Source: Candidatus Pacearchaeota archaeon (lineage in GTDB: Archaea; Nanobdellota; Nanobdellia; Pacearchaeales; GW2011-AR1). From it: a stretch of DNA of 64,000 bases. The notes under the pieces are model-generated. The model did no database searches, had not been told where the DNA came from, and saw nothing but the letters and a program-made list of their open reading frames with translations. The stretch lies in the NCBI GenBank assembly GCA_002688015.1, contig NZBT01000006.1:915-64914 (forward strand). Direction: 5' to 3'. The translations under genes and the position numbers were made by a program. Shown piece after piece: positions 1,083 through 38,213 of this stretch. How positions within the stretch are numbered: position 1 is the stretch's first letter; each line of letters opens with the position of its first letter.

Positions 1083-1175
1083 TTTAGAATAAGATGAGAA
1101 TAAAAGAAAATAAGTATTTATAAAGCTACAATCATTATAAAATAGAATAGAAATTTAGTACAAATTGAATATAAA

Positions 1176-1238
1176 ATGAAAATAAAGCAGACAAGAAGTC
1201 CGCTAATTATTCATTTTCAAAAACGGAATAAAAAATGA
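1176..1238 (+). promoter_or_regulatory. Conserved leader element copy 1: 20-codon upstream ORF (MKIKQTRSPLIIHFQKRNKK) with ATGA overlap to the 1235 start
   Basis: ATG at 1176 and TGA at 1236-1238, overlapping the ATG at 1235-1237. Core AAGCAGACAAGAAGTCCGCTAATTATTCATTTTC is shared with 12793-12826. Below the ORF-track size cutoff. Confidence 0.5.
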
Positions 1239-4200
1239 AAATAAGAGGTTTAAATGTTGGGAATAAGGTAATTTATTTATCTGTTTTTCTTGTAATACTT
1301 TTAGTTTTGCTATCTGTGGCTATTTATAATCTTAATACTTTGGAGAAAGAGAAATTATTGCAATTGGCCCCTCCAACAGATGATATTCTATATTATGATT
1401 TTGATACTTTGACAGAATTGAGTCAACCTGTTTTGTTTGATATTGGGGGTGGAGAAGACAAAGTTAATTTGGGAGATAGTTTACCTATCGAACCTTGGAG
1501 TCTTTCTGAAGATCATTTGAGAACTGTGCTTGGGAATGAAATTTATAATAATGGGGATGGAGATGGGTTTGAATATAATCAGAACATTTATTTTTCAGAT
1601 AATTTTGTTTTGAAGCACAAAGCTAATGGTACCAATTATTCTGTAATTGGTTTAGAGAATGATAATGGAGAAATTTTTACTTATAGTCTGACATTTACTA
1701 CTTCTCCAAGTGCTGGATTTGAGGGAACCATGTTAAGATTTTTAGGAAAGGAGTATTATGTTCAGAGTTATGATTCTTCTGCAGGGATGAAAGTTTTCGA
1801 TTCTATTTTGGAAGAGTTTAATGTGACTCTTAATGAAAGTGGCGGAGGGAGTGTAGCGTCGAGGTATGATGGAGATGATATAGTTGGTTTGAAGATATTA
1901 AGTATTGGAGCTGGGACTGTTACATTAGAAGAGAATTTGGTGAATATTGGAACACTTAGTGAGGGAGATACGTATGAATTATCAGAGGGAGTTTATTTGG
2001 GAGTCAAGAAGATTAATTATGTTGCAAGTGGATTTAGTACTGTTGAATTAGTTGTTGGAAATGTTAAGACAGATTTTGTGAATGGAGGAAATATAAAAGT
2101 TAATGATGAAGATGTTGAGGGATATGCTGTTTCTATAACTGATTCAGGGAGTTTTGAATTGAGTATTGTTTATAGTGAGAATTTATTTTTGGAAGATGGA
2201 ATGAGTTTTGATTTGCCTGTTTTCGAGACTCTGTCTTTTGGACTTAATGTTAATGATAGACAGGAAAGAGGAATCGTTTCCGTTTTGAATAATTCAGAGA
2301 GAATAACTTTTTCTGCGAATATAAATGGAGTGTTGAGGAAAATTGATTTGCTTAGTGTTTCTAGTACTGGAGAGATTAGAATAGGAAACTCTACTGATAA
2401 ACTTCTTGCTGTGAGTGGAAATAGTTTGGATGTAGAAGCTGATTCTGGTTTGGGAATTGTTCAATCAGATTTCATAACTACTTTTAGTGACGCTATTAAT
2501 TCTGTGGATAGAAATAATGAGATGATGGCTCAGACATTTTTACTTTCTCAAGGTTCAGCGCAGTCTATAAATGAAGTTAAACTTTTTGTTAAGAGAACAG
2601 CTTCTAATGATAAGGGGTTTGTAAAGATGTTTTTGACAGGAGTTGATGTTGATGAAAAGCCGGATTTGAGTAATATTTTATCAGAGTTACAAGAGATAAA
2701 TATTTCTAATTTGAGTGAAGATAGTTATGAATGGATTAGTCTTAGTATTCCCGTTGTTACTTTAGATATTGGGGAGAGCTATGCGGTAGTTATTAACGGA
2801 ACGAATATAATTGGGACCGATGCTAATAATTTTGCTTGGGCATTTAGCGATGCCGATCCTTATGCGGATGGAGAAATTCACAGGAAAGCATACAATACCG
2901 ATACTTGGAATCCTTCAGGGACTGGTAGAGACTTTGCTTTTGAATTGAAAGGATTCAACTCTCTTTCTAGGAGGGAATTTTTTGCTTCTGTAGGAGACCA
3001 GACTTATGGAGAGAGTTATTTATTGAATGTAAAAGATATGACTATATCTGATACAGAAGAGAGAATTGTTTTGGAGAATATTTTTGATGGGGCAGAAGAG
3101 GATTTGAATGTTGGAGAGTTTAATGAATATGGGAATGTAAAAGTTGAAGTAAAAAGCGTTTTGGCGGGAAGGAATGGATTTTCGTTAGAGGTTTCTCCTG
3201 TTGATGGTATTGGAACTGGAAGCTTTGAAAAGATTTATACAGATTCTGGATTATCTGTTAATATTCCTACTGATCTAAGTGGAGAAAGTGTAATCTTAGA
3301 ATTTGAAGAAGAAGATGTTGGGACAAAGGGAGAAAGTTTTGATATTGTTGTTGGGAAGACTTTAGATGGGAATTTGAGTGTTAAGGGCACTTCTTTACAA
3401 GAGTTTTCAGATACTTTGACAGGAAGAAATGTTTCTTATGTTGTTTCTGGTTTTGCTACAAGAGTTGAGAGAGAAGGGAATTTAGATAATTCTTCTGTCG
3501 AGATTAAATATTATGGAGAAGAACTTTATGGAGAATTGAGAGTTGAAGAGATTGGAGAAAATATTTATTCTAGGAGTGCTCTTCTTGATTTAAGAGGGGG
3601 CGAAAGTATTGGGACAATTAAAGGGGTAAGATTAGAAGAAGGGCAATTTGAAAATGCAGCAATGTTTACAGGAAATGGAGAGTATGTTGAAGTTGGAGGA
3701 AGCCCAGATATTGATTCTTTAGAACAGGGAAGTTATACACTTGCTGCTTGGTATAGGCCTTTGGGTGTTCCTGGAGATGGACATGCAATTATTGCAAAAT
3801 CAGAAAATGGCTTGGCTGAGGGACAGACTAATCTGTATCCTATAGGGCTTAAGTATAAGATGACAGGAGCTGATGAAGGATTTGCTATGACTCATTATGA
3901 AGGAAGCAGTGGATATGAAGCAGTTACTTCAGGGCCTGGATTTGGTGTTGATGGAGATTATTTAGTTACAGGTGTTGTTGATAGGGCTGCTGGAAAAGTT
4001 AAAATATATGTGAATGGAATTCTTGAGGATACTAGAAATATTGCATCTATTACATCTGCAAGAACTTATGATAGTAATTGGAGAATTGGAATTTCCAATA
4101 TTAATTCTAGTGTTTCTATGGAAGAATATTCTGCTAATGGTTTAGTTGATGAAGTCAAGATGTGGGATCGGGCTTTGACTGATTCTGAGGTTTCAGAACT

Positions 4201-11709: not shown

Positions 11710-12786
11710 ATGTTAACAAAAAAGCAGATTGAGGAGGTAAGAGAGCATTTGGAAAGGGCTCAGAATCCTGTTTTTTATTATGATAATGATTCTGACGGTC
11801 TTTGTAGTTTTGTTTTGTTTAGGAGAAAGTTCGATAAGGGAAAGGGAGTTGCTGTTAGAAGTTTTCCAGATTTAGATGTAAGATATGCGAAAAAAGCACA
11901 GGAATTAAATGCAGATTATGTTTTTATTTTGGATAAGCCAGATGTTTCAGAAGAATTTTTAGAGGAAATTAAAAATTTAGGATTACCTGTTGTTTGGATC
12001 GATCATCATGATATTCCTGGATTGAATGTGGAAAAAATGGAAAAGAAGTTTGATAATTTATATGTTTATAATTGGGCAAGAAATAAAGGGAAGGATAAAA
12101 GTGAAGAGCCAGTTACTTATTGGGCTTATAAGATTACTGAGAGAAAGGAAGATTTGTGGCTTGCGGTTTGTGGGTGTATAGCAGATAGTTATTTGCCTGA
12201 TTTTTCTTTGGAGTTTAAAGAGAAGTGGCCTGATTATTGGAGTCCAGCTGTAAAGACTGCTTTTGATGCTTATTTTGGAACGGAGATAGGGAAGATAGCG
12301 GAAGGTTTGAATTTTGGATTGAAAGATAGTACAAGTAATATTGTGAAGTTACAGAATTTTTTAGTTTCTGCTAAGGGGCCTGAAGAAATTTTTGAAGAGT
12401 CAAGTAAAAATTATGAGTTTAGAAAAAAATATAAAGAAATTAAGAAGAAATATGATGTTTTAATTGAGAAAGCTAAAGAGAAAGCGGAGGAGAAAATAAT
12501 TTTCTTTGAGTATTCTGGAGAGTTGAGTATAAGTTCTGAGGTTAGTAATAGAATTTTTTATTTTTATCCTGATAAGTATACTGTTATCGCGTTTAAGAAA
12601 GGAGGAATCAGTAATCTTTCTTTGAGAGGAGAAGATGTTAGAGGAATTTTAGAGAAAGTTTTGAATTCAGGGGAATTTGAAGGAGCTACAGGAGGGGGGC
12701 ATGAGAAAGCTGTTGGAGCGAGAATTAAAACGGAAGATTTAAAGAAGTTTAAGGAAATGATTGAGAAGGAGATAGAGAGAAAATAG
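11710..12786 (+). CDS. DHH/DHHA1 phosphoesterase (RecJ/NrnA-like), paralog 1
   Basis: Motifs YYDNDSDGLCS, VVWIDHHD (DHH) and C-terminal GGGHEKAVGA (DHHA1 GGGH). Confidence 0.8.
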   Translation: MLTKKQIEEVREHLERAQNPVFYYDNDSDGLCSFVLFRRKFDKGKGVAVRSFPDLDVRYAKKAQELNADYVFILDKPDVSEEFLEEIKNLGLPVVWIDHHDIPGLNVEKMEKKFDNLYVYNWARNKGKDKSEEPVTYWAYKITERKEDLWLAVCGCIADSYLPDFSLEFKEKWPDYWSPAVKTAFDAYFGTEIGKIAEGLNFGLKDSTSNIVKLQNFLVSAKGPEEIFEESSKNYEFRKKYKEIKKKYDVLIEKAKEKAEEKIIFFEYSGELSISSEVSNRIFYFYPDKYTVIAFKKGGISNLSLRGEDVRGILEKVLNSGEFEGATGGGHEKAVGARIKTEDLKKFKEMIEKEIERK

Positions 12787-12789
12787 AAA

Positions 12790-12852
12790 ATGAAGCAGAC
12801 AGGAAATCCGCTAATTTTCCATTTTCGGAAATGGAAGGAAAATAGAAAATGA
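12790..12852 (+). promoter_or_regulatory. Conserved leader element copy 2: 20-codon upstream ORF (MKQTGNPLIFHFRKWKENRK) with ATGA overlap to the 12849 start
   Basis: ATG at 12790, four nt after the DHH gene stop. TGA at 12850-12852 overlaps the ATG at 12849-12851. Core AAGCAGACAGGAAATCCGCTAATTTTCCATTTTC matches copy 1. Confidence 0.5.
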
Positions 12853-13877
12853 AAGAAATTAAGATTGAAGTTTATGGAAGAGTGCAGGGAGTCAGATTTA
12901 GAAATGTAATAAAAGGAATTGCTGACTCATTAGATGTTAAAGGATATGTTAGGAATAGAGAGATTGGAGGTGTTGTGATAGTTGCTCAAGGGAGCGAGGG
13001 AAAGTTAAAGAGTTTTTTAGAAGAAATTAATAGAAGTCCTGGGCTTTCTAAAGTTGAGCAAGTTGAGTGGAAATGGCATGAGCAAAGTATAGAATATAAA
13101 GAGTTTAGTATAGAGAAAGATAAAGGTTTTATCGAAGATCAGATTAAGAGCTTTAAGAATTTGGGGAAGACTTTGATTGGGAGGAATTTTGGAATAGTGC
13201 CAGAGCATGTCGTTATTATTCCAGATGGAAATAGGAGATGGGCTAAGGAAAAAGGATTAAGTGGGAGTGAAGGACATATTAAGGCTGCTGCTTTTGAGAA
13301 TTTGATAAGTTTGTTTGATGAGAGCATGAATATGGGAATAAAATATGCTTCTTTGTGGGCTTTTTCTACTGAGAATTGGAAAAGAAATGAAAGAGAAAAG
13401 AAAGTTCTTTTTTCTTTGTTGAGAGGTTTAGTCGATCAGTTAGGAGAATATTTGGAGAAGAATGAAGTTAGGTTTAGACATATTGGAAGGAAAGATAGGC
13501 TTCCTAAAAATTTGATTGAAGATTTACAAAATTTAGAGAAAAAAACTGAAAAGCACAATAACTTCAATGTTTCTTTGCTTTTGGACTATGGGGGGAGAGA
13601 TGAGATTGTTAGAGTGGTTAATAAATTATTAAAACAAGGAAAGAATGAAATAACTGAAGAAGAGATTTGTAAACATTTAGATACATTTGATATTCCTGAT
13701 CCTGATTTGATTATTAGAACTTCAGGGGAGCAGAGAACATCAGGATTACTACCTTGGCAGTCTACATATTCTGAACTTTATTTTGCTGATGTTTATTTTC
13801 CTGATTTTGATGTTAAGGAATTTAAGAAATCAATTGAGGAATTTTCAAAAAGAAAGAGAACTTTTGGCGGGAATTGA
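12849..13877 (+). CDS. uppS: Acylphosphatase domain fused to cis-prenyltransferase (undecaprenyl/dehydrodolichyl diphosphate synthase)
   Basis: The N-terminal ~90 aa carry both acylphosphatase signatures (VYGRVQGVRFR; GYVRNREIGGVVIVAQG). The remainder carries UppS motifs HVVIIPDGNRRWA, FSTENWKR and IRTSGEQRTSGLLPWQSTYSELYF. Confidence 0.9.
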   Translation: MKEIKIEVYGRVQGVRFRNVIKGIADSLDVKGYVRNREIGGVVIVAQGSEGKLKSFLEEINRSPGLSKVEQVEWKWHEQSIEYKEFSIEKDKGFIEDQIKSFKNLGKTLIGRNFGIVPEHVVIIPDGNRRWAKEKGLSGSEGHIKAAAFENLISLFDESMNMGIKYASLWAFSTENWKRNEREKKVLFSLLRGLVDQLGEYLEKNEVRFRHIGRKDRLPKNLIEDLQNLEKKTEKHNNFNVSLLLDYGGRDEIVRVVNKLLKQGKNEITEEEICKHLDTFDIPDPDLIIRTSGEQRTSGLLPWQSTYSELYFADVYFPDFDVKEFKKSIEEFSKRKRTFGGN

Positions 13878-15217: not shown

Positions 15218-16603
15218 ATGAAATTTGTTAATGTGGTTAAGGGAATGATTGGATTAGAGATACATGCTTATCCTATTACTAAGGAGAAATTGTTTTGTCG
15301 TTGTGCTGCTCGTAGAGGGAAAGGTTTGAAGGCAAATAGTTATATTTGCCCAATTTGTACTGGGCAGCCTGGGGCGAAACCAGAGTTAGCGAATAAGGCT
15401 GCTGTTGAGAAAGCTGTATTGATAGGGCTGATGTTAGGTTGTTCTATAGAAAAGGATTGGAAATGGCAGAGAAAGCATTATGATTGGCCAGATATGCCTA
15501 AGGGATTTCAGAACACAATTAGCGGAGGTTTATCAAAATCTGTTGGGAAAAATGGAAAGTTTCATGGAATAAAAATAAGAAGTATGCATTTAGAAGAAGA
15601 TCCTGCTGCTTGGAATCCGGAAACAGGGGAAATAGATTATAACCGTTCAGGTTTACCTTTGGTTGAAATAATTACAGATCCCGACTTTAAGGATGCAGAA
15701 AGTGTCATGGGCTGGCTTAAAAAGTTGATTGCTAATCTTGGATATTTGAAATCTATTGATAAAGATGCAGGAATTAAAGTTGATGTTAATGTTTCTATTC
15801 CTGGAAAAAGCGAAAGGACGGAGATAAAGAACATAAACAGTATTGAAAATATTGGGAAAGCAATTGAATATGAATTGAAAAGACAAGGGAAGGAAGGAGG
15901 AAAGGAAAAGGAAACAAGAAGATTTGATGCGGGGAAGGGGAAGACAGAGGTTATGAGGCAGAAAGAAGGACAGGATGATTATAGGTTTATTACAGATCCT
16001 GATTTGCAAGATGTGAAAATTACAGAGAAGTTTATTTCTGAAATAGAAAAGAAATTGCCTGAGACACCAGAAGAAAAGTTGAAAAAACTTGTTAAGAAGT
16101 ATAAAATTGGTAAGGGAGATGCTGATGTTCTTGCTAAGAATATTGATGTTGTTGAATTTTTTGAGGCAGTCATGGGGGAGACAAGAGTCAAGAAAGAGAA
16201 AGTACTTTCATGGGTGACAGGGGAACTGTTGAGGCATTTGAATTATAACAAAACGAGTCTTGATGGTTTAGATATAAAAGTTGAACATTTTGTTAGTTTG
16301 CTTGAACTTGTTGATTCCGGAAAGATTACAGAGCAACAGGGGAAAAAGATTTTGGATAAATTTATTCCAAAGAGTTTTGATCCAAAGAAAGAGATAAAAG
16401 GAAAGGGAAAGATAAGTGGAGAGGGAGAATTAGGAAAAGTTGTTGAAAAAGTTATAGGCAAGAATGGAAAGGCAGTTGAAGATTACGGGGCTGGAGAAGA
16501 AAAAGCATTACATTTCTTAATTGGGCAAGTAATGAGAGAGACTGCGGGAAGAGCAGATACAGAGATTGTTAGGAAATTGTTGAAAAAGAAGTTGAAGGAT
16601 TAA
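15218..16603 (+). CDS. gatB: Asp/Glu-tRNA amidotransferase subunit B
   Basis: GLEIHAY...KLFCRC...ICPICTGQPGAKPELN...RKHYDWPDMPKGFQNT and a YqeY-like tail (LIGQVMRETAGRAD). Confidence 0.9.
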   Translation: MKFVNVVKGMIGLEIHAYPITKEKLFCRCAARRGKGLKANSYICPICTGQPGAKPELANKAAVEKAVLIGLMLGCSIEKDWKWQRKHYDWPDMPKGFQNTISGGLSKSVGKNGKFHGIKIRSMHLEEDPAAWNPETGEIDYNRSGLPLVEIITDPDFKDAESVMGWLKKLIANLGYLKSIDKDAGIKVDVNVSIPGKSERTEIKNINSIENIGKAIEYELKRQGKEGGKEKETRRFDAGKGKTEVMRQKEGQDDYRFITDPDLQDVKITEKFISEIEKKLPETPEEKLKKLVKKYKIGKGDADVLAKNIDVVEFFEAVMGETRVKKEKVLSWVTGELLRHLNYNKTSLDGLDIKVEHFVSLLELVDSGKITEQQGKKILDKFIPKSFDPKKEIKGKGKISGEGELGKVVEKVIGKNGKAVEDYGAGEEKALHFLIGQVMRETAGRADTEIVRKLLKKKLKD

Positions 16604-27176: not shown

Positions 27177-27205
27177 ATGAATTCTTTCTGTTTTTAATAT
27201 GGCAA

Positions 27206-27502
27206 GTGATAAAGAGATTAGGAAAATCTCTAATAAACCATTTTCAAGAAAAGGAAGAAAAAATGGTTGATAAAGATACAGAGAAGGTTAGAGAGGAAGC
27301 AAGAGCTTTACTTGAAAATTTTGCGAAAAAGCTTGAGAAAGTTGATTTAGGGAAAGAGAAGGAAGAGAAAGATATGAAAGAATCTGGTTTTCGTGAAGAG
27401 GGAGAAGGAAAGGAAGCAAACGAAGATTTTAAAAAGAGATTTCTAGATAATGCTCCTAATGTTAAAGGGGGAAAGATTGTAGCTGAGAAGAAGAGTTGGT
27501 AA
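27206..27502 (+). CDS. gatC: GatC-like amidotransferase subunit (start uncertain)
   Basis: C-terminal GFREEGEG...FLDNAPNVKGGKIVAEK resembles the GatC pattern R-E-D-E...NAP...G-x-(F/I)-x-V-P. Candidate starts are GTG 27206 (98 aa) or ATG 27263 (79 aa). A 23-codon ORF from ATG 27199 in another frame ends 5 nt after ATG 27263. Confidence 0.5.
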   Translation: MIKRLGKSLINHFQEKEEKMVDKDTEKVREEARALLENFAKKLEKVDLGKEKEEKDMKESGFREEGEGKEANEDFKKRFLDNAPNVKGGKIVAEKKSW

Positions 27503-38060: not shown

Positions 38061-38213
38061 ATGGCAAAGAAAAAAGCAAAGAAAGCAACAAAGAAAAAAG
38101 CAACCAAGAAGAAAGCAGTGAAGAAGAAAGCAGTGAAGAAGAAAGCAGTGAAGAAAAAGGCTGCAAAAAAGAAAGCACCAAAGAAAAAGGCTGCAAAAAA
38201 GAAGAGAAGATAA
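38061..38213 (+). CDS. 50-aa Lys/Ala-repeat highly basic protein (histone H1 tail-like / nucleic-acid-binding candidate)
   Basis: ATG at 38061 preceded by AGGTGA (38044-38049). Translation: MAKKKAKKATKKKATKKKAVKKKAVKKKAVKKKAAKKKAPKKKAAKKKRR*. TATA AGTTTATAAA at 38001-38010. The track ORFs 37976..38239(+) and 37993..38223(-) are alternative frames of the same repeat. Confidence 0.6.
   Translation: MAKKKAKKATKKKATKKKAVKKKAVKKKAVKKKAAKKKAPKKKAAKKKRR

Follow-up and report, generated by a model that had tools for sequence, protein, structure and literature searches.

The 20-codon leader ORFs that precede two genes in this 64,000-nucleotide stretch of a Candidatus Pacearchaeota contig (hereafter the window) probably belong to a multi-copy family of hairpin elements of about 59 nt, inserted in sense a few codons into DPANN genes and bridged by a translational relay. 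What had been taken for a leader ORF is the orphaned original start of the host gene, displaced upstream by the element of about 59 bases; the direct repeat is the duplicated start region of that gene, and the "leader ATG" duplicates the real start. The best reading of the family is a new, small, translatable repeat element resembling miniature elements of the MITE type and Rickettsia palindromic elements (RPEs), and, as judged from reading frames, its host genes are apparently not switched off by it.

The initial annotation had placed the two ORFs at 1176-1238 (ATG to TGA, MKIKQTRSPLIIHFQKRNKK followed by the stop) and at 12790-12852 (MKQTGNPLIFHFRKWKENRK, likewise followed by the stop), and both were recovered there, the TGA of the first overlapping the ATG at 1235 of a 1527-aa ORF and that of the second overlapping the ATG at 12849 of an ORF with a Pfam-based identity as acylphosphatase-UppS. 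The 34-nt core that they were reported to share has exactly two matches in the window (1185-1218 and 12793-12826) and none in 100 shuffles, and the two copies are 87.8% identical across 41 nt. The differences between the window copies are all non-synonymous and two frames are in use, which upholds the earlier view that conservation is at the nucleotide rather than the peptide level. Direct repeats spaced 59 nt apart accompany both copies, at 1162-1185 and 1221-1244 for copy 1 and at 12768-12794 and 12827-12853 for copy 2. A third, diverged copy lies at 27199-27270; it did not figure in the initial annotation, and neither did the 59-nt-spaced repeats, the hairpin or the hosts unrelated to the envelope. 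The parts of the three copies are listed below, where DR1 and DR2 are the direct repeats, HP1 is the hairpin, and ATG1 and ATG2 are the orphan and real starts.

1162-1185, + strand: copy 1, DR1, upstream copy of the host start region with the orphan ATG1 at 1176; 88% identical to 1221-1244 at a spacing of 59 nt.
1176-1238, + strand: copy 1, putative relay ORF of 20 codons, from the orphan ATG1 to the TGA that overlaps ATG2 (ATGA).
1186-1204, - strand: copy 1, HP1; + strand AGCAGAC-AAGAA-GTCCGCT, minus-strand fold AGCGGAC-UUCUU-GUCUGCU; covariance-model hit at 1178-1220, 60.1 bits.
1205-1218, + strand: copy 1, AAT and pyrimidine-rich arm TATTCATTTTC, complementary to the start context AAAATGAA.
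1221-1244, + strand: copy 1, DR2, the start region in use; the 1527-aa Laminin_G_3 surface protein begins here at the real ATG2 (1235).
12779-12794, + strand: copy 2, DR1 GAAAATAGAAAATGAA, in which the upstream DHH gene terminates (TAG) and the orphan ATG1 lies at 12790; a weaker repeat can be followed back as far as 12768.
12790-12852, + strand: copy 2, putative relay ORF of 20 codons, TGA overlapping ATG2.
12794-12812, - strand: copy 2, HP1; + strand AGCAGAC-AGGAA-ATCCGCT; covariance-model hit at 12786-12828, 62.5 bits.
12813-12837, + strand: copy 2, AAT, arm TTTCCATTTTC (12816-12826) and purine-rich linker GGAAATGGAAG.
12838-12853, + strand: copy 2, DR2, where acylphosphatase-UppS starts at the real ATG2 (12849); the orthologous junction is empty in contig L029.
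27199-27270, + strand: copy 3, putative relay ORF of 23 codons, MASDKEIRKISNKPFSRKGRKNG followed by the stop, ending 5 nt inside the real ORF.
27213-27231, - strand: copy 3, HP1 of another sub-family, AGAGATT-AGGAA-AATCTCT, with the stem fully compensated and the same loop; covariance-model hit at 27205-27247, 46.8 bits.
27232-27262, + strand: copy 3, AAT, arm AAACCATTTTC (complement of AAAATGGTT) and linker AAGAAAAGGAAGAAAA; the real ATG2 follows at 27263 and opens a 79-aa protein.

A covariance model returned exactly these three copies in the window, and no unit lacking a direct repeat. Searching with the core pattern yielded two loci in a Woesearchaeota MAG and 11 AT-rich metagenome loci, all at gene starts and all with the repeat (S1 upstream, S2 downstream), although the search demanded neither; 12 GC-rich metagenome matches were rejected as chance, and scans of viral_contigs with two core variants returned chance matches only, in the wrong context. 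Diverged sub-families were recovered by a structure-based search restricted to sites with a direct repeat and an A[AG]GA[AG] loop. The family comprises 24 units in about 200 kb, three in the window and 21 in Woesearchaeota and Pacearchaeota contigs, at a density of roughly one per 8-20 kb, and this is a small sample partly ascertained by a fixed core. A pattern and covariance search of relatives, which the initial annotation had recommended, produced these 21 further units, in diverse genes.

Each unit is ordered as S1 (the host start region), HP1, AAT, a pyrimidine arm, a purine-rich linker, and S2 with the real gene. HP1 has a 7-bp stem and a 5-nt loop that reads A[A/G]GAA on the sense strand, the arm is 9-13 nt long and complementary to the host start region, and the linker usually carries an SD-like GGAG or GGGA. 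Units measure 55-65 nt with a period of about 59 nt in most copies, and all 24 lie in sense, at offsets of +4 to +45 from the native ATG, with sites deep in coding sequence being rarer. The direct repeats span 7-27 nt, those of arrays as much as 47 nt, with the period still about 59 nt. Tandem arrays occur in contigs L020 and L015/L021, and the long perfect repeats in L001, L008, L015 and L020 may themselves be array remnants, given that the first hairpin is preceded by a remnant of CTAA, arm or linker. Among the host genes are those for ribosomal proteins L6, L30, S28e, L44e and S3Ae, as well as Gins51, Cdc48, GatA, GatB and an MBL hydrolase, a range that contradicts the shared envelope-gene regulon initially proposed. 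In L002 the linker supplies the SD, and at GatA it supplies a new ATG too, acting as a portable start.

Rather than a conserved leader, the element is an insertion whose presence varies between orthologs. Five orthologous sites are occupied in certain genomes and vacant in others, with a sixth, in-frame case in L024. The DHH-UppS junction that holds copy 2 is empty in L029 and occupied by a different sub-family in L033; the SIMPL start carries the element in L001 but not in the window, L029 or L033; and the starts of GatA and MBL are filled in L002 and empty in the window (81% and 74% amino acid identity, respectively). An internal site of gatB carries a 57-nt in-frame copy in both L029 and L033 and none in the window, and a host gene in L024 carries a 60-nt in-frame copy where its L021 ortholog has none. 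These CDS-internal in-frame copies (n = 3: gatB in L029, gatB in L033 and the L024 host gene) are free of stops, and the copy in gatB would add the peptide SADRKSAGSTTLR to GatB.

The hairpin is strongly biased towards the antisense strand. Pairing is satisfied in 99.3% of HP1 pairing cells on the antisense strand and in 80.3% on the sense strand, and both sides change in five of the seven antisense-strand pairs. The hairpin formed by S1, HP1 and the arm has a mean energy of -15.7 kcal/mol in antisense as against -9.9 kcal/mol in sense, and the antisense fold is the more stable one in 22 of 24 units. All wobble pairs favour the minus strand (in copy 2, two A.C mismatches on the + strand are two G.U pairs on the minus strand), a T-rich stretch follows the minus-strand hairpin, and the loop is invariant at four of its five positions across sub-families. 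Arms are more complementary to their own start region than to those of other units (permutation p<0.0005), and their match to S2 exceeds that to S1 in 13 units and falls short of it in two. This arm:S2 complementarity has been kept in orthologous copies with diverged linkers, namely Gins51 (L008 versus L021) and gatB (L029 versus L033), which hints at selection on the pairing and at an element that is possibly useful to its host and not purely selfish. Only tRNAs matched Rfam 15 at the gathering threshold across the whole window, and permissive Rfam scans of both loci (copies 1 and 2) gave noise only (E>2).

The reading frames support a relay by termination and reinitiation. The frame of the orphan ATG remains open to within 14 nt of the real ATG in all 19 gene-start copies, against 11 expected (P~1.4e-5); its stop falls between -12 and +14 of ATG2 in every one of them and overlaps ATG2 as ATGA in ten. 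Two of the three frames are open through the element in nearly all units, and the TAA-closed frame is used by none of the 19 orphan ATGs. The peptide reads KQTGNPL(I).. or ADRKSAN.. according to frame and is not conserved among copies. Experimentally, termination-reinitiation requires an overlap or a very short distance (PMC10666635), and in archaea the coupling collapses at a distance of about 20 nt (PMC10666635; PMC6728339). The stops found here lie on or near the downstream start, as in termination-reinitiation pairs, and the choice of frame is non-random. The positional part of the coupling that was suggested initially therefore stands (19/19 open within 14 nt, 10/19 as ATGA), the relay itself being deduced entirely from reading frames.

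A mobile hairpin element would account for these features as follows. Insertion would convert a simple start into a relay, in which ribosomes would enter at the native ATG1 and read about 20 codons through the element, HP1 being kept weak on the mRNA by its A.C mismatches; they would then melt the arm:S2 hairpin, stop on or beside ATG2 and reinitiate there, so that expression would survive. The stable antisense-strand hairpin would form in a single-stranded intermediate (DNA, cDNA or antisense RNA) that is used for copying. Spread could proceed through a trans-acting enzyme with a variable target duplication, or through short-homology template switching or ectopic conversion between start regions, and the latter route would explain the constant 59-nt unit. 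Counting against this reading, the apparent target duplication of 7-27 nt (47 nt in arrays) is unlike that of classical transposases. No larger element carrying HP1 was found in pattern scans.

A domesticated cis-regulatory device, in which a translational switch is retained by the host, the arm sequesters the real SD and start, and output depends either on relay-ORF translation or on a protein or antisense RNA recognising the constant HP1 loop, would co-regulate many highly expressed genes, and it gains from the arm:S2 pairing that persists while the linker diverges, the constraint on the relay frame, the near-invariant loop (4/5 positions across sub-families) and the many ribosomal or replication genes among the hosts. 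We nonetheless consider it unlikely, as orthologs in close relatives manage without the element, the in-frame copies inside gatB and another coding sequence sit where control of the start is irrelevant, HP1 is weak on the mRNA strand, and the tandem arrays and decayed copies resemble selfish turnover. The strand bias could instead point to an antisense small-RNA gene, with a minus-strand hairpin RNA (the reverse complement of the arm, HP1, the reverse complement of S1 and a U-rich tail) as a product that is cis-antisense to the gene start. The direction of all wobble pairs and the T-rich stretch after the minus-strand hairpin are as such a gene would have them, but a single-stranded DNA intermediate fits the G.T wobbles equally well, no conserved promoter is recognisable, and the flanks that would have to provide promoter and terminator are host-specific. 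The proposal also offers no reason for the duplicated start region, for a unit of constant 59 nt, for open frames in sense or for in-frame copies within coding sequence, and we hold it to be improbable.

Removal or skipping of the unit, whether by intron-like excision between the repeats or by ribosomes that hop from S1 onto S2 in the manner of T4 gene 60 and the mitochondrial byps, appears very improbable. The resemblance to these bypassed elements is that of a short mobile insert flanked by matching codons (here the direct repeats, as possible take-off and landing sites), with a hairpin that directly follows the first of them and an SD-like motif that precedes the second. However, no stop follows the putative take-off codon in S1 and the frames are open; the CDS copies of 57 and 60 nt are in frame and stop-free in two lineages, which is needed only if they are translated; and the relay-frame constraint would be needless if the unit were skipped, so that ordinary translation and reinitiation are favoured. 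Predicted folds show a 5x5 internal loop instead of a bulge-helix-bulge motif. We give almost no credence to the model of the initial annotation, in which envelope and glycosylation genes would be co-regulated through a conserved leader, either peptide or RNA. Of the three window copies, two do precede a surface protein and UppS, but the hosts at large are diverse, the UppS ortholog in L029 lacks the element, and no Rfam family matches. An arrest or leader peptide is at odds with an element that is read in two different frames with different peptides, and a known RNA switch with the missing Rfam match and a hairpin that is weak on the mRNA strand.

Other candidates were considered and rejected. 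A transcription-factor palindrome does not fit a covarying stem, a conserved loop and a strand-specific wobble asymmetry. A CRISPR-like mini-array or off-target spacer integration (an insert of about 32 nt with a duplication of about 27 nt) would not leave a "spacer" (HP1 and arm) conserved between loci with differing repeats. Inspection of HP1 revealed no defining motif of tRNA-like, K-turn or C/D-box structures. The lack of two 3-nt bulges with a 4-bp helix and the CDS copies, which are open and in frame, disfavour an archaeal BHB intron, and copies inside operons (L6, L30 and DHH-UppS) tell against a retro-copied leaderless mRNA, in which the repeat would derive from the mRNA 5' end.

Returning to the mobile-element reading, literature searches turned up no matching description of a DPANN, MITE or palindromic repeat element, but several known systems share parts of its design. 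RPEs are small, multi-copy and tolerated inside genes as in-frame translatable inserts (PMC10969869); the present units resemble them as small, palindromic, non-autonomous repeats, and the copies in gatB (57 nt, L029 and L033) and L024 (60 nt) are in-frame translatable insertions of the same kind. RPEs are, however, bacterial (Rickettsia), about 100-150 bp long and scattered within genes, whereas the 55-65-nt archaeal unit is unrelated in sequence, lies overwhelmingly at first codons, duplicates the start, brings an anti-start arm as well as a linker of SD-like character, and mostly sits out of frame, so that a relay ORF results. With MITEs, REP/REPIN and Correia elements it has in common short hairpin repeats at high density, sub-families, the lack of coding capacity and co-transcription with neighbours, and with MITEs specifically the short, non-coding, multi-copy character and the insertion polymorphism. 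Unlike MITEs, it bears no terminal inverted repeats of its own, the constant inverted repeat being the internal HP1; its outer arm pairs with host start sequence and varies at every site, its target duplication has no fixed length and its orientation is strictly sense. REP/REPIN sequences are extragenic, whereas these copies lie in first codons or inside coding sequence.

The stop on or within a few nucleotides of the downstream ATG, mostly as ATGA, recalls ATGA termination-reinitiation gene pairs, for which coupling in archaea depends on distance (PMC6728339, PMC10666635); here, though, the upstream ORF is no gene and would be a mobile, frame-dependent by-product of insertion of about 20 codons. 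Integron attC sites ("59-base elements") are likewise imperfect palindromes of about 59 nt that fold on one strand and conserve structure more than sequence. The present units lack the R''/R' core sites (RYYYAAC / GTTRRRY), those of the window containing no GTT at all; they show no cassette organisation, keep the tip of the hairpin constant rather than its outer ends, and sit inside gene starts with a direct repeat.

Going further, we tentatively raise the possibility, itself doubtful, that the family represents a new class of mobile element that homes to initiation regions by means of an antisense hairpin, a portable SD and start, and a host-matched anti-start arm. Such an element would rely on base-pairing or short homology to copy itself, perhaps with an RNA/cDNA or single-stranded DNA intermediate, would entail an obligatory uORF relay, and might be co-opted as a genome-wide translation handle on ribosomal and highly expressed DPANN genes.

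These results place a repeat element inside the first codons of genes, ribosomal-protein genes included, in very small archaeal genomes, where expression is apparently kept by way of a short relay ORF. The element is seemingly built to be translationally harmless, in that it folds weakly on the mRNA strand and stably on the antisense strand and leaves two frames open, and its copies offer a natural multi-copy test bed for archaeal termination-reinitiation. They also present a risk for annotation, giving rise to spurious N-terminal extensions, to 20-codon ORFs that stay hidden and to insertions of 19-20 aa in conserved enzymes, and metagenome assemblies are broken by them. The matching of arm to host, if worked out, may reveal a new mechanism of insertion or template switching.

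The two 20-codon ORFs at 1176-1238 and 12790-12852 re-read as the initial annotation had described them, with the TGA of each joined in an ATGA overlap to the ATG of the long ORF that follows. Their 34-nt core has exactly two matches in the window (zero expected by chance), and each core is bracketed, at a spacing of 59 nt, by two copies of the host gene's start region, so that the supposed leader ATG is a duplicate of the real start. The window, from a TARA Oceans contig, has a G+C content of 35% and is archaeal, as its genes for TBP and an archaeal pilin indicate. Searched with a covariance model derived from 24 units, it yielded exactly three copies, and 144 kb of related loci yielded no new ones.

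Element copies in the window
1162-1244: copy 1; direct repeat 1162-1185/1221-1244, 88% identical
12768-12853: copy 2; direct repeat 12768-12794/12827-12853, 85% identical
27199-27270: copy 3, a relay ORF (a short ORF from the orphaned native start, ATG1, to near the working start, ATG2), found by structure-based search; diverged sub-family, hairpin AGAGATT-AGGAA-AATCTCT

Copy 3 precedes a 79-aa ORF (27263-27502) without a Pfam match, and its sub-family is that of the unit at the UppS start in the related archaeal locus L033. The start region of copy 2 (12779-12794, 12838-12853) carries an internal 7-nt tandem duplication, GAAAATA GAAAATG, and the TAG arising from it now terminates the upstream DHH gene; in L029 and L033 the stop of that gene forms an ATGA overlap with the ATG. 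The acylphosphatase-UppS fusion that follows (12849-13877) is conserved in at least the 120 best-scoring DPANN-type homologs, each with both Pfam domains; several homologs are 357-372 aa long, with N-terminal extensions.

That the element is an insertion follows from orthologous sites, at which some genomes carry a unit and others do not.

Orthologous sites with and without the element
DHH-UppS junction: filled in the window and L033 (other sub-family); empty in L029, which has a plain ATGA overlap
SIMPL gene start: filled in L001; empty in the window, L029 and L033
GatA and MBL-hydrolase starts: filled in L002; empty in the window (81% and 74% aa identity)

Three copies lie away from starts, or well 3' of the native start. 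In L029 and L033, gatB contains an in-frame unit of 57 nt encoding 19 aa (SAD[R/K]KSA.STTLR..GVVD), which the window gatB lacks; similarly, a host gene in L024 has a 60-nt in-frame unit 45 nt into the gene, and its L021 ortholog is without it. The gatB unit (L033 4891-4947, L029 12741-12797; window gatB 15218-16603) is canonical and common to two lineages with 82% nt identity, and its site is near a conserved ..YL..D..GS.R.D.N.S.. segment, which we take to be part of the GatB catalytic core. In L002 GatA, 33 nt of native coding sequence precede the unit, whose linker supplies GGAG and a new ATG, thereby replacing the N-terminus; the native L002 MBL start has no SD and receives GGGAGAG from the element. 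Given these element-supplied SD and ATG sequences and the in-frame copies, the unit is, as read from sequence, a translatable carrier of a portable initiation region.

Scanning GTDB species genomes for the core returned two copies in one Woesearchaeota MAG, and metagenomes yielded 23 stretches, comprising 11 on AT-rich archaeal contigs (groundwater from Hainich H51, marine and other samples) and 12 GC-rich matches that we rejected as chance. All true copies were at the extreme start of a co-oriented gene with identical layout, neither of which the scan imposed. Each unit consists of an upstream start-region copy (S1), an A, a hairpin with a 7-bp stem and 5-nt loop (HP1), AAT, a pyrimidine arm complementary to the host start, a purine-rich linker and the downstream start-region copy (S2), followed by the gene. 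Most copies have a period of 59 nt (range 55-65), although the visible repeat varies between 7 and 27 nt. Tandem arrays occur in L020 (two units) and in L015/L021 (at least two, where the assembly is broken), and L028 begins within the element. As the arrays at L015/L021 (one Hainich contig as two loci), the L028 start and L020 3078-3220 coincide with assembly breaks or contig ends, array copy number is probably under-reported in metagenome assemblies. Other repeats were also noted. In the Woesearchaeota MAG (L001 1814-1970), the SIMPL and DHH genes flank a different tandem repeat, ~2.7 units each 57-58 nt long, which has a nested hairpin of its own (AAACCT..GCAAG-GTT-CTTGC..AGGTTT) and may represent a further family of hairpin repeats with a comparable unit length. 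L019 3432-3530 holds a perfect 33-nt direct repeat at 66-nt spacing (CCTTCTGCATGTTAGTGCAGAATGGTCCCAAGA) containing a TGCA..TGCA palindrome. Unrelated to the element is a coding repeat rich in lysine in a small minus-strand ORF region of the window (38078-38190), where AAAGAAAGCAxCAAAGAAAAA.. recurs with a period of ~90, along with shorter GAAGAAAGCAGTGAA repeats.

When units are aligned on HP1, S1 is purine-rich, frequently with TAA or TGA at its end, and after HP1 come AAY, a run of some 12 pyrimidines, as a rule ..CCATTTT(C), and then purines. Structure-based search recovered diverged sub-families whose stems are wholly different yet complementary, with the loop unchanged. Two-sided changes occur in 5/7 HP1 pairs, and the observed covariation score was reached by no shuffle. 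Standard pairs form in 99.3% of cells on the antisense strand and in 80.3% on the sense strand, because every wobble is A.C on the latter; as the search admitted both wobble kinds, this asymmetry is not a search artefact. The S1-HP1-arm hairpin averages -15.7 kcal/mol antisense and -9.9 kcal/mol sense, the antisense strand being better in 22/24 units, and at copies 1 and 2 the compound hairpin has z = -4.9 and -7.0 on the minus strand, much better than the plus-strand values of -2.7 and -1.2. Arm complementarity is specific to the start region of the unit's own host (permutation p<0.0005), and the better match to the arm is the working S2 in 13 units, the orphan S1 in 2.

The earlier proposal of a leader peptide did not survive: ATG1 uses two frames, giving two unlike peptides across copies (KQTGNPLI.. 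or ADRKSAN..), and this dependence on frame excludes a peptide function, while the suspicion of nucleotide-level conservation was borne out. Coupling of the short ORF to the gene also appears to hold, as a positional relationship: in 19/19 gene-start copies, reading from ATG1 meets no stop until a point no more than 14 nt from ATG2 (11 expected with random frame, P~1.4e-5), and stop and ATG2 overlap as ATGA in 10 of them. Frame use is not random: the ATG1-HP1 offset is never 0 mod 3, and in no copy does ATG1 fall in the third frame, which a TAA beside HP1 shuts. In a hypothetical frame-c copy the stop would fall 30-50 nt upstream of ATG2, and termination-reinitiation coupling in Haloferax and E. 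coli is nearly lost at ~20 nt spacing (PMC10666635; see also PMC6728339). The simplest reading, we infer, is that ribosomes would enter at the native start and be relayed to the duplicated start, and that insertions permitting this relay would be those that survive. The weak mRNA-strand HP1 and the open frames would suit an element that ribosomes have to traverse.

Several observations, namely that 24/24 units share the sense orientation of their host genes, the preference for start regions, the variable repeat with constant unit length, the better arm:S2 match, and a donor-like S2/linker sequence (GGAGAAAATAG.AAATGA) common to window copy 2, L011 and L006 in different genes, point to a spread process tied to start-region sequence. 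All five would fit a complete 59-nt unit being inserted through short-homology template switching, or else through ectopic conversion between similar initiation regions. The antisense hairpin preference and the host-specific arms (Gins51, gatB, L024) suggest an intermediate that is single-stranded, perhaps together with a dedicated enzyme. Quasipalindrome template switching is a known route by which an imperfect inverted repeat comes to match its partner (e.g. PMC7202029), and by analogy we speculate that template switching could tailor the arm to the host start. The long perfect repeats of L001, L008, L015 and L020 may be leftovers of tandem arrays, since their first hairpin is preceded by what remains of a CTAA, arm or linker.

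The closest known elements are MITE/REP elements and small palindromic repeats such as RPEs, the last of which insert in frame and can be translated (review PMC10969869); in terms of expression, the nearest arrangement is that of ATGA-coupled gene pairs. The element lacks both the terminal inverted repeats and the fixed target-site duplication of MITEs, and does not share the extragenic location that defines REPs. CRISPR, attC, BHB introns, Rfam families and leader peptides were likewise rejected on their defining tests, and searches of open-access papers found no description of the element. We rate it as a small non-autonomous palindromic repeat with several unusual properties, for which a new mechanism of insertion is a genuine possibility.

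Hosts include the ribosomal proteins L6, L30, S28e, L44e and S3Ae, together with Gins51, Cdc48, GatA, GatB, SIMPL, MBL hydrolase, a PMT_2 glycosyltransferase, an EMC3-like insertase, UppS, pilin-like proteins and surface proteins. An envelope regulon, as first suggested, is not supported, as ribosomal, replication and housekeeping genes are included and no envelope theme emerges; if anything, in a small sample clustered on few contigs, the hosts are housekeeping genes for which high expression is expected. Orthologous copies (L029 vs L033 in gatB, L008 vs L021 in Gins51) have kept the arm and S2 while the linker diverged, which leaves room for a function of the element at the level of the host.
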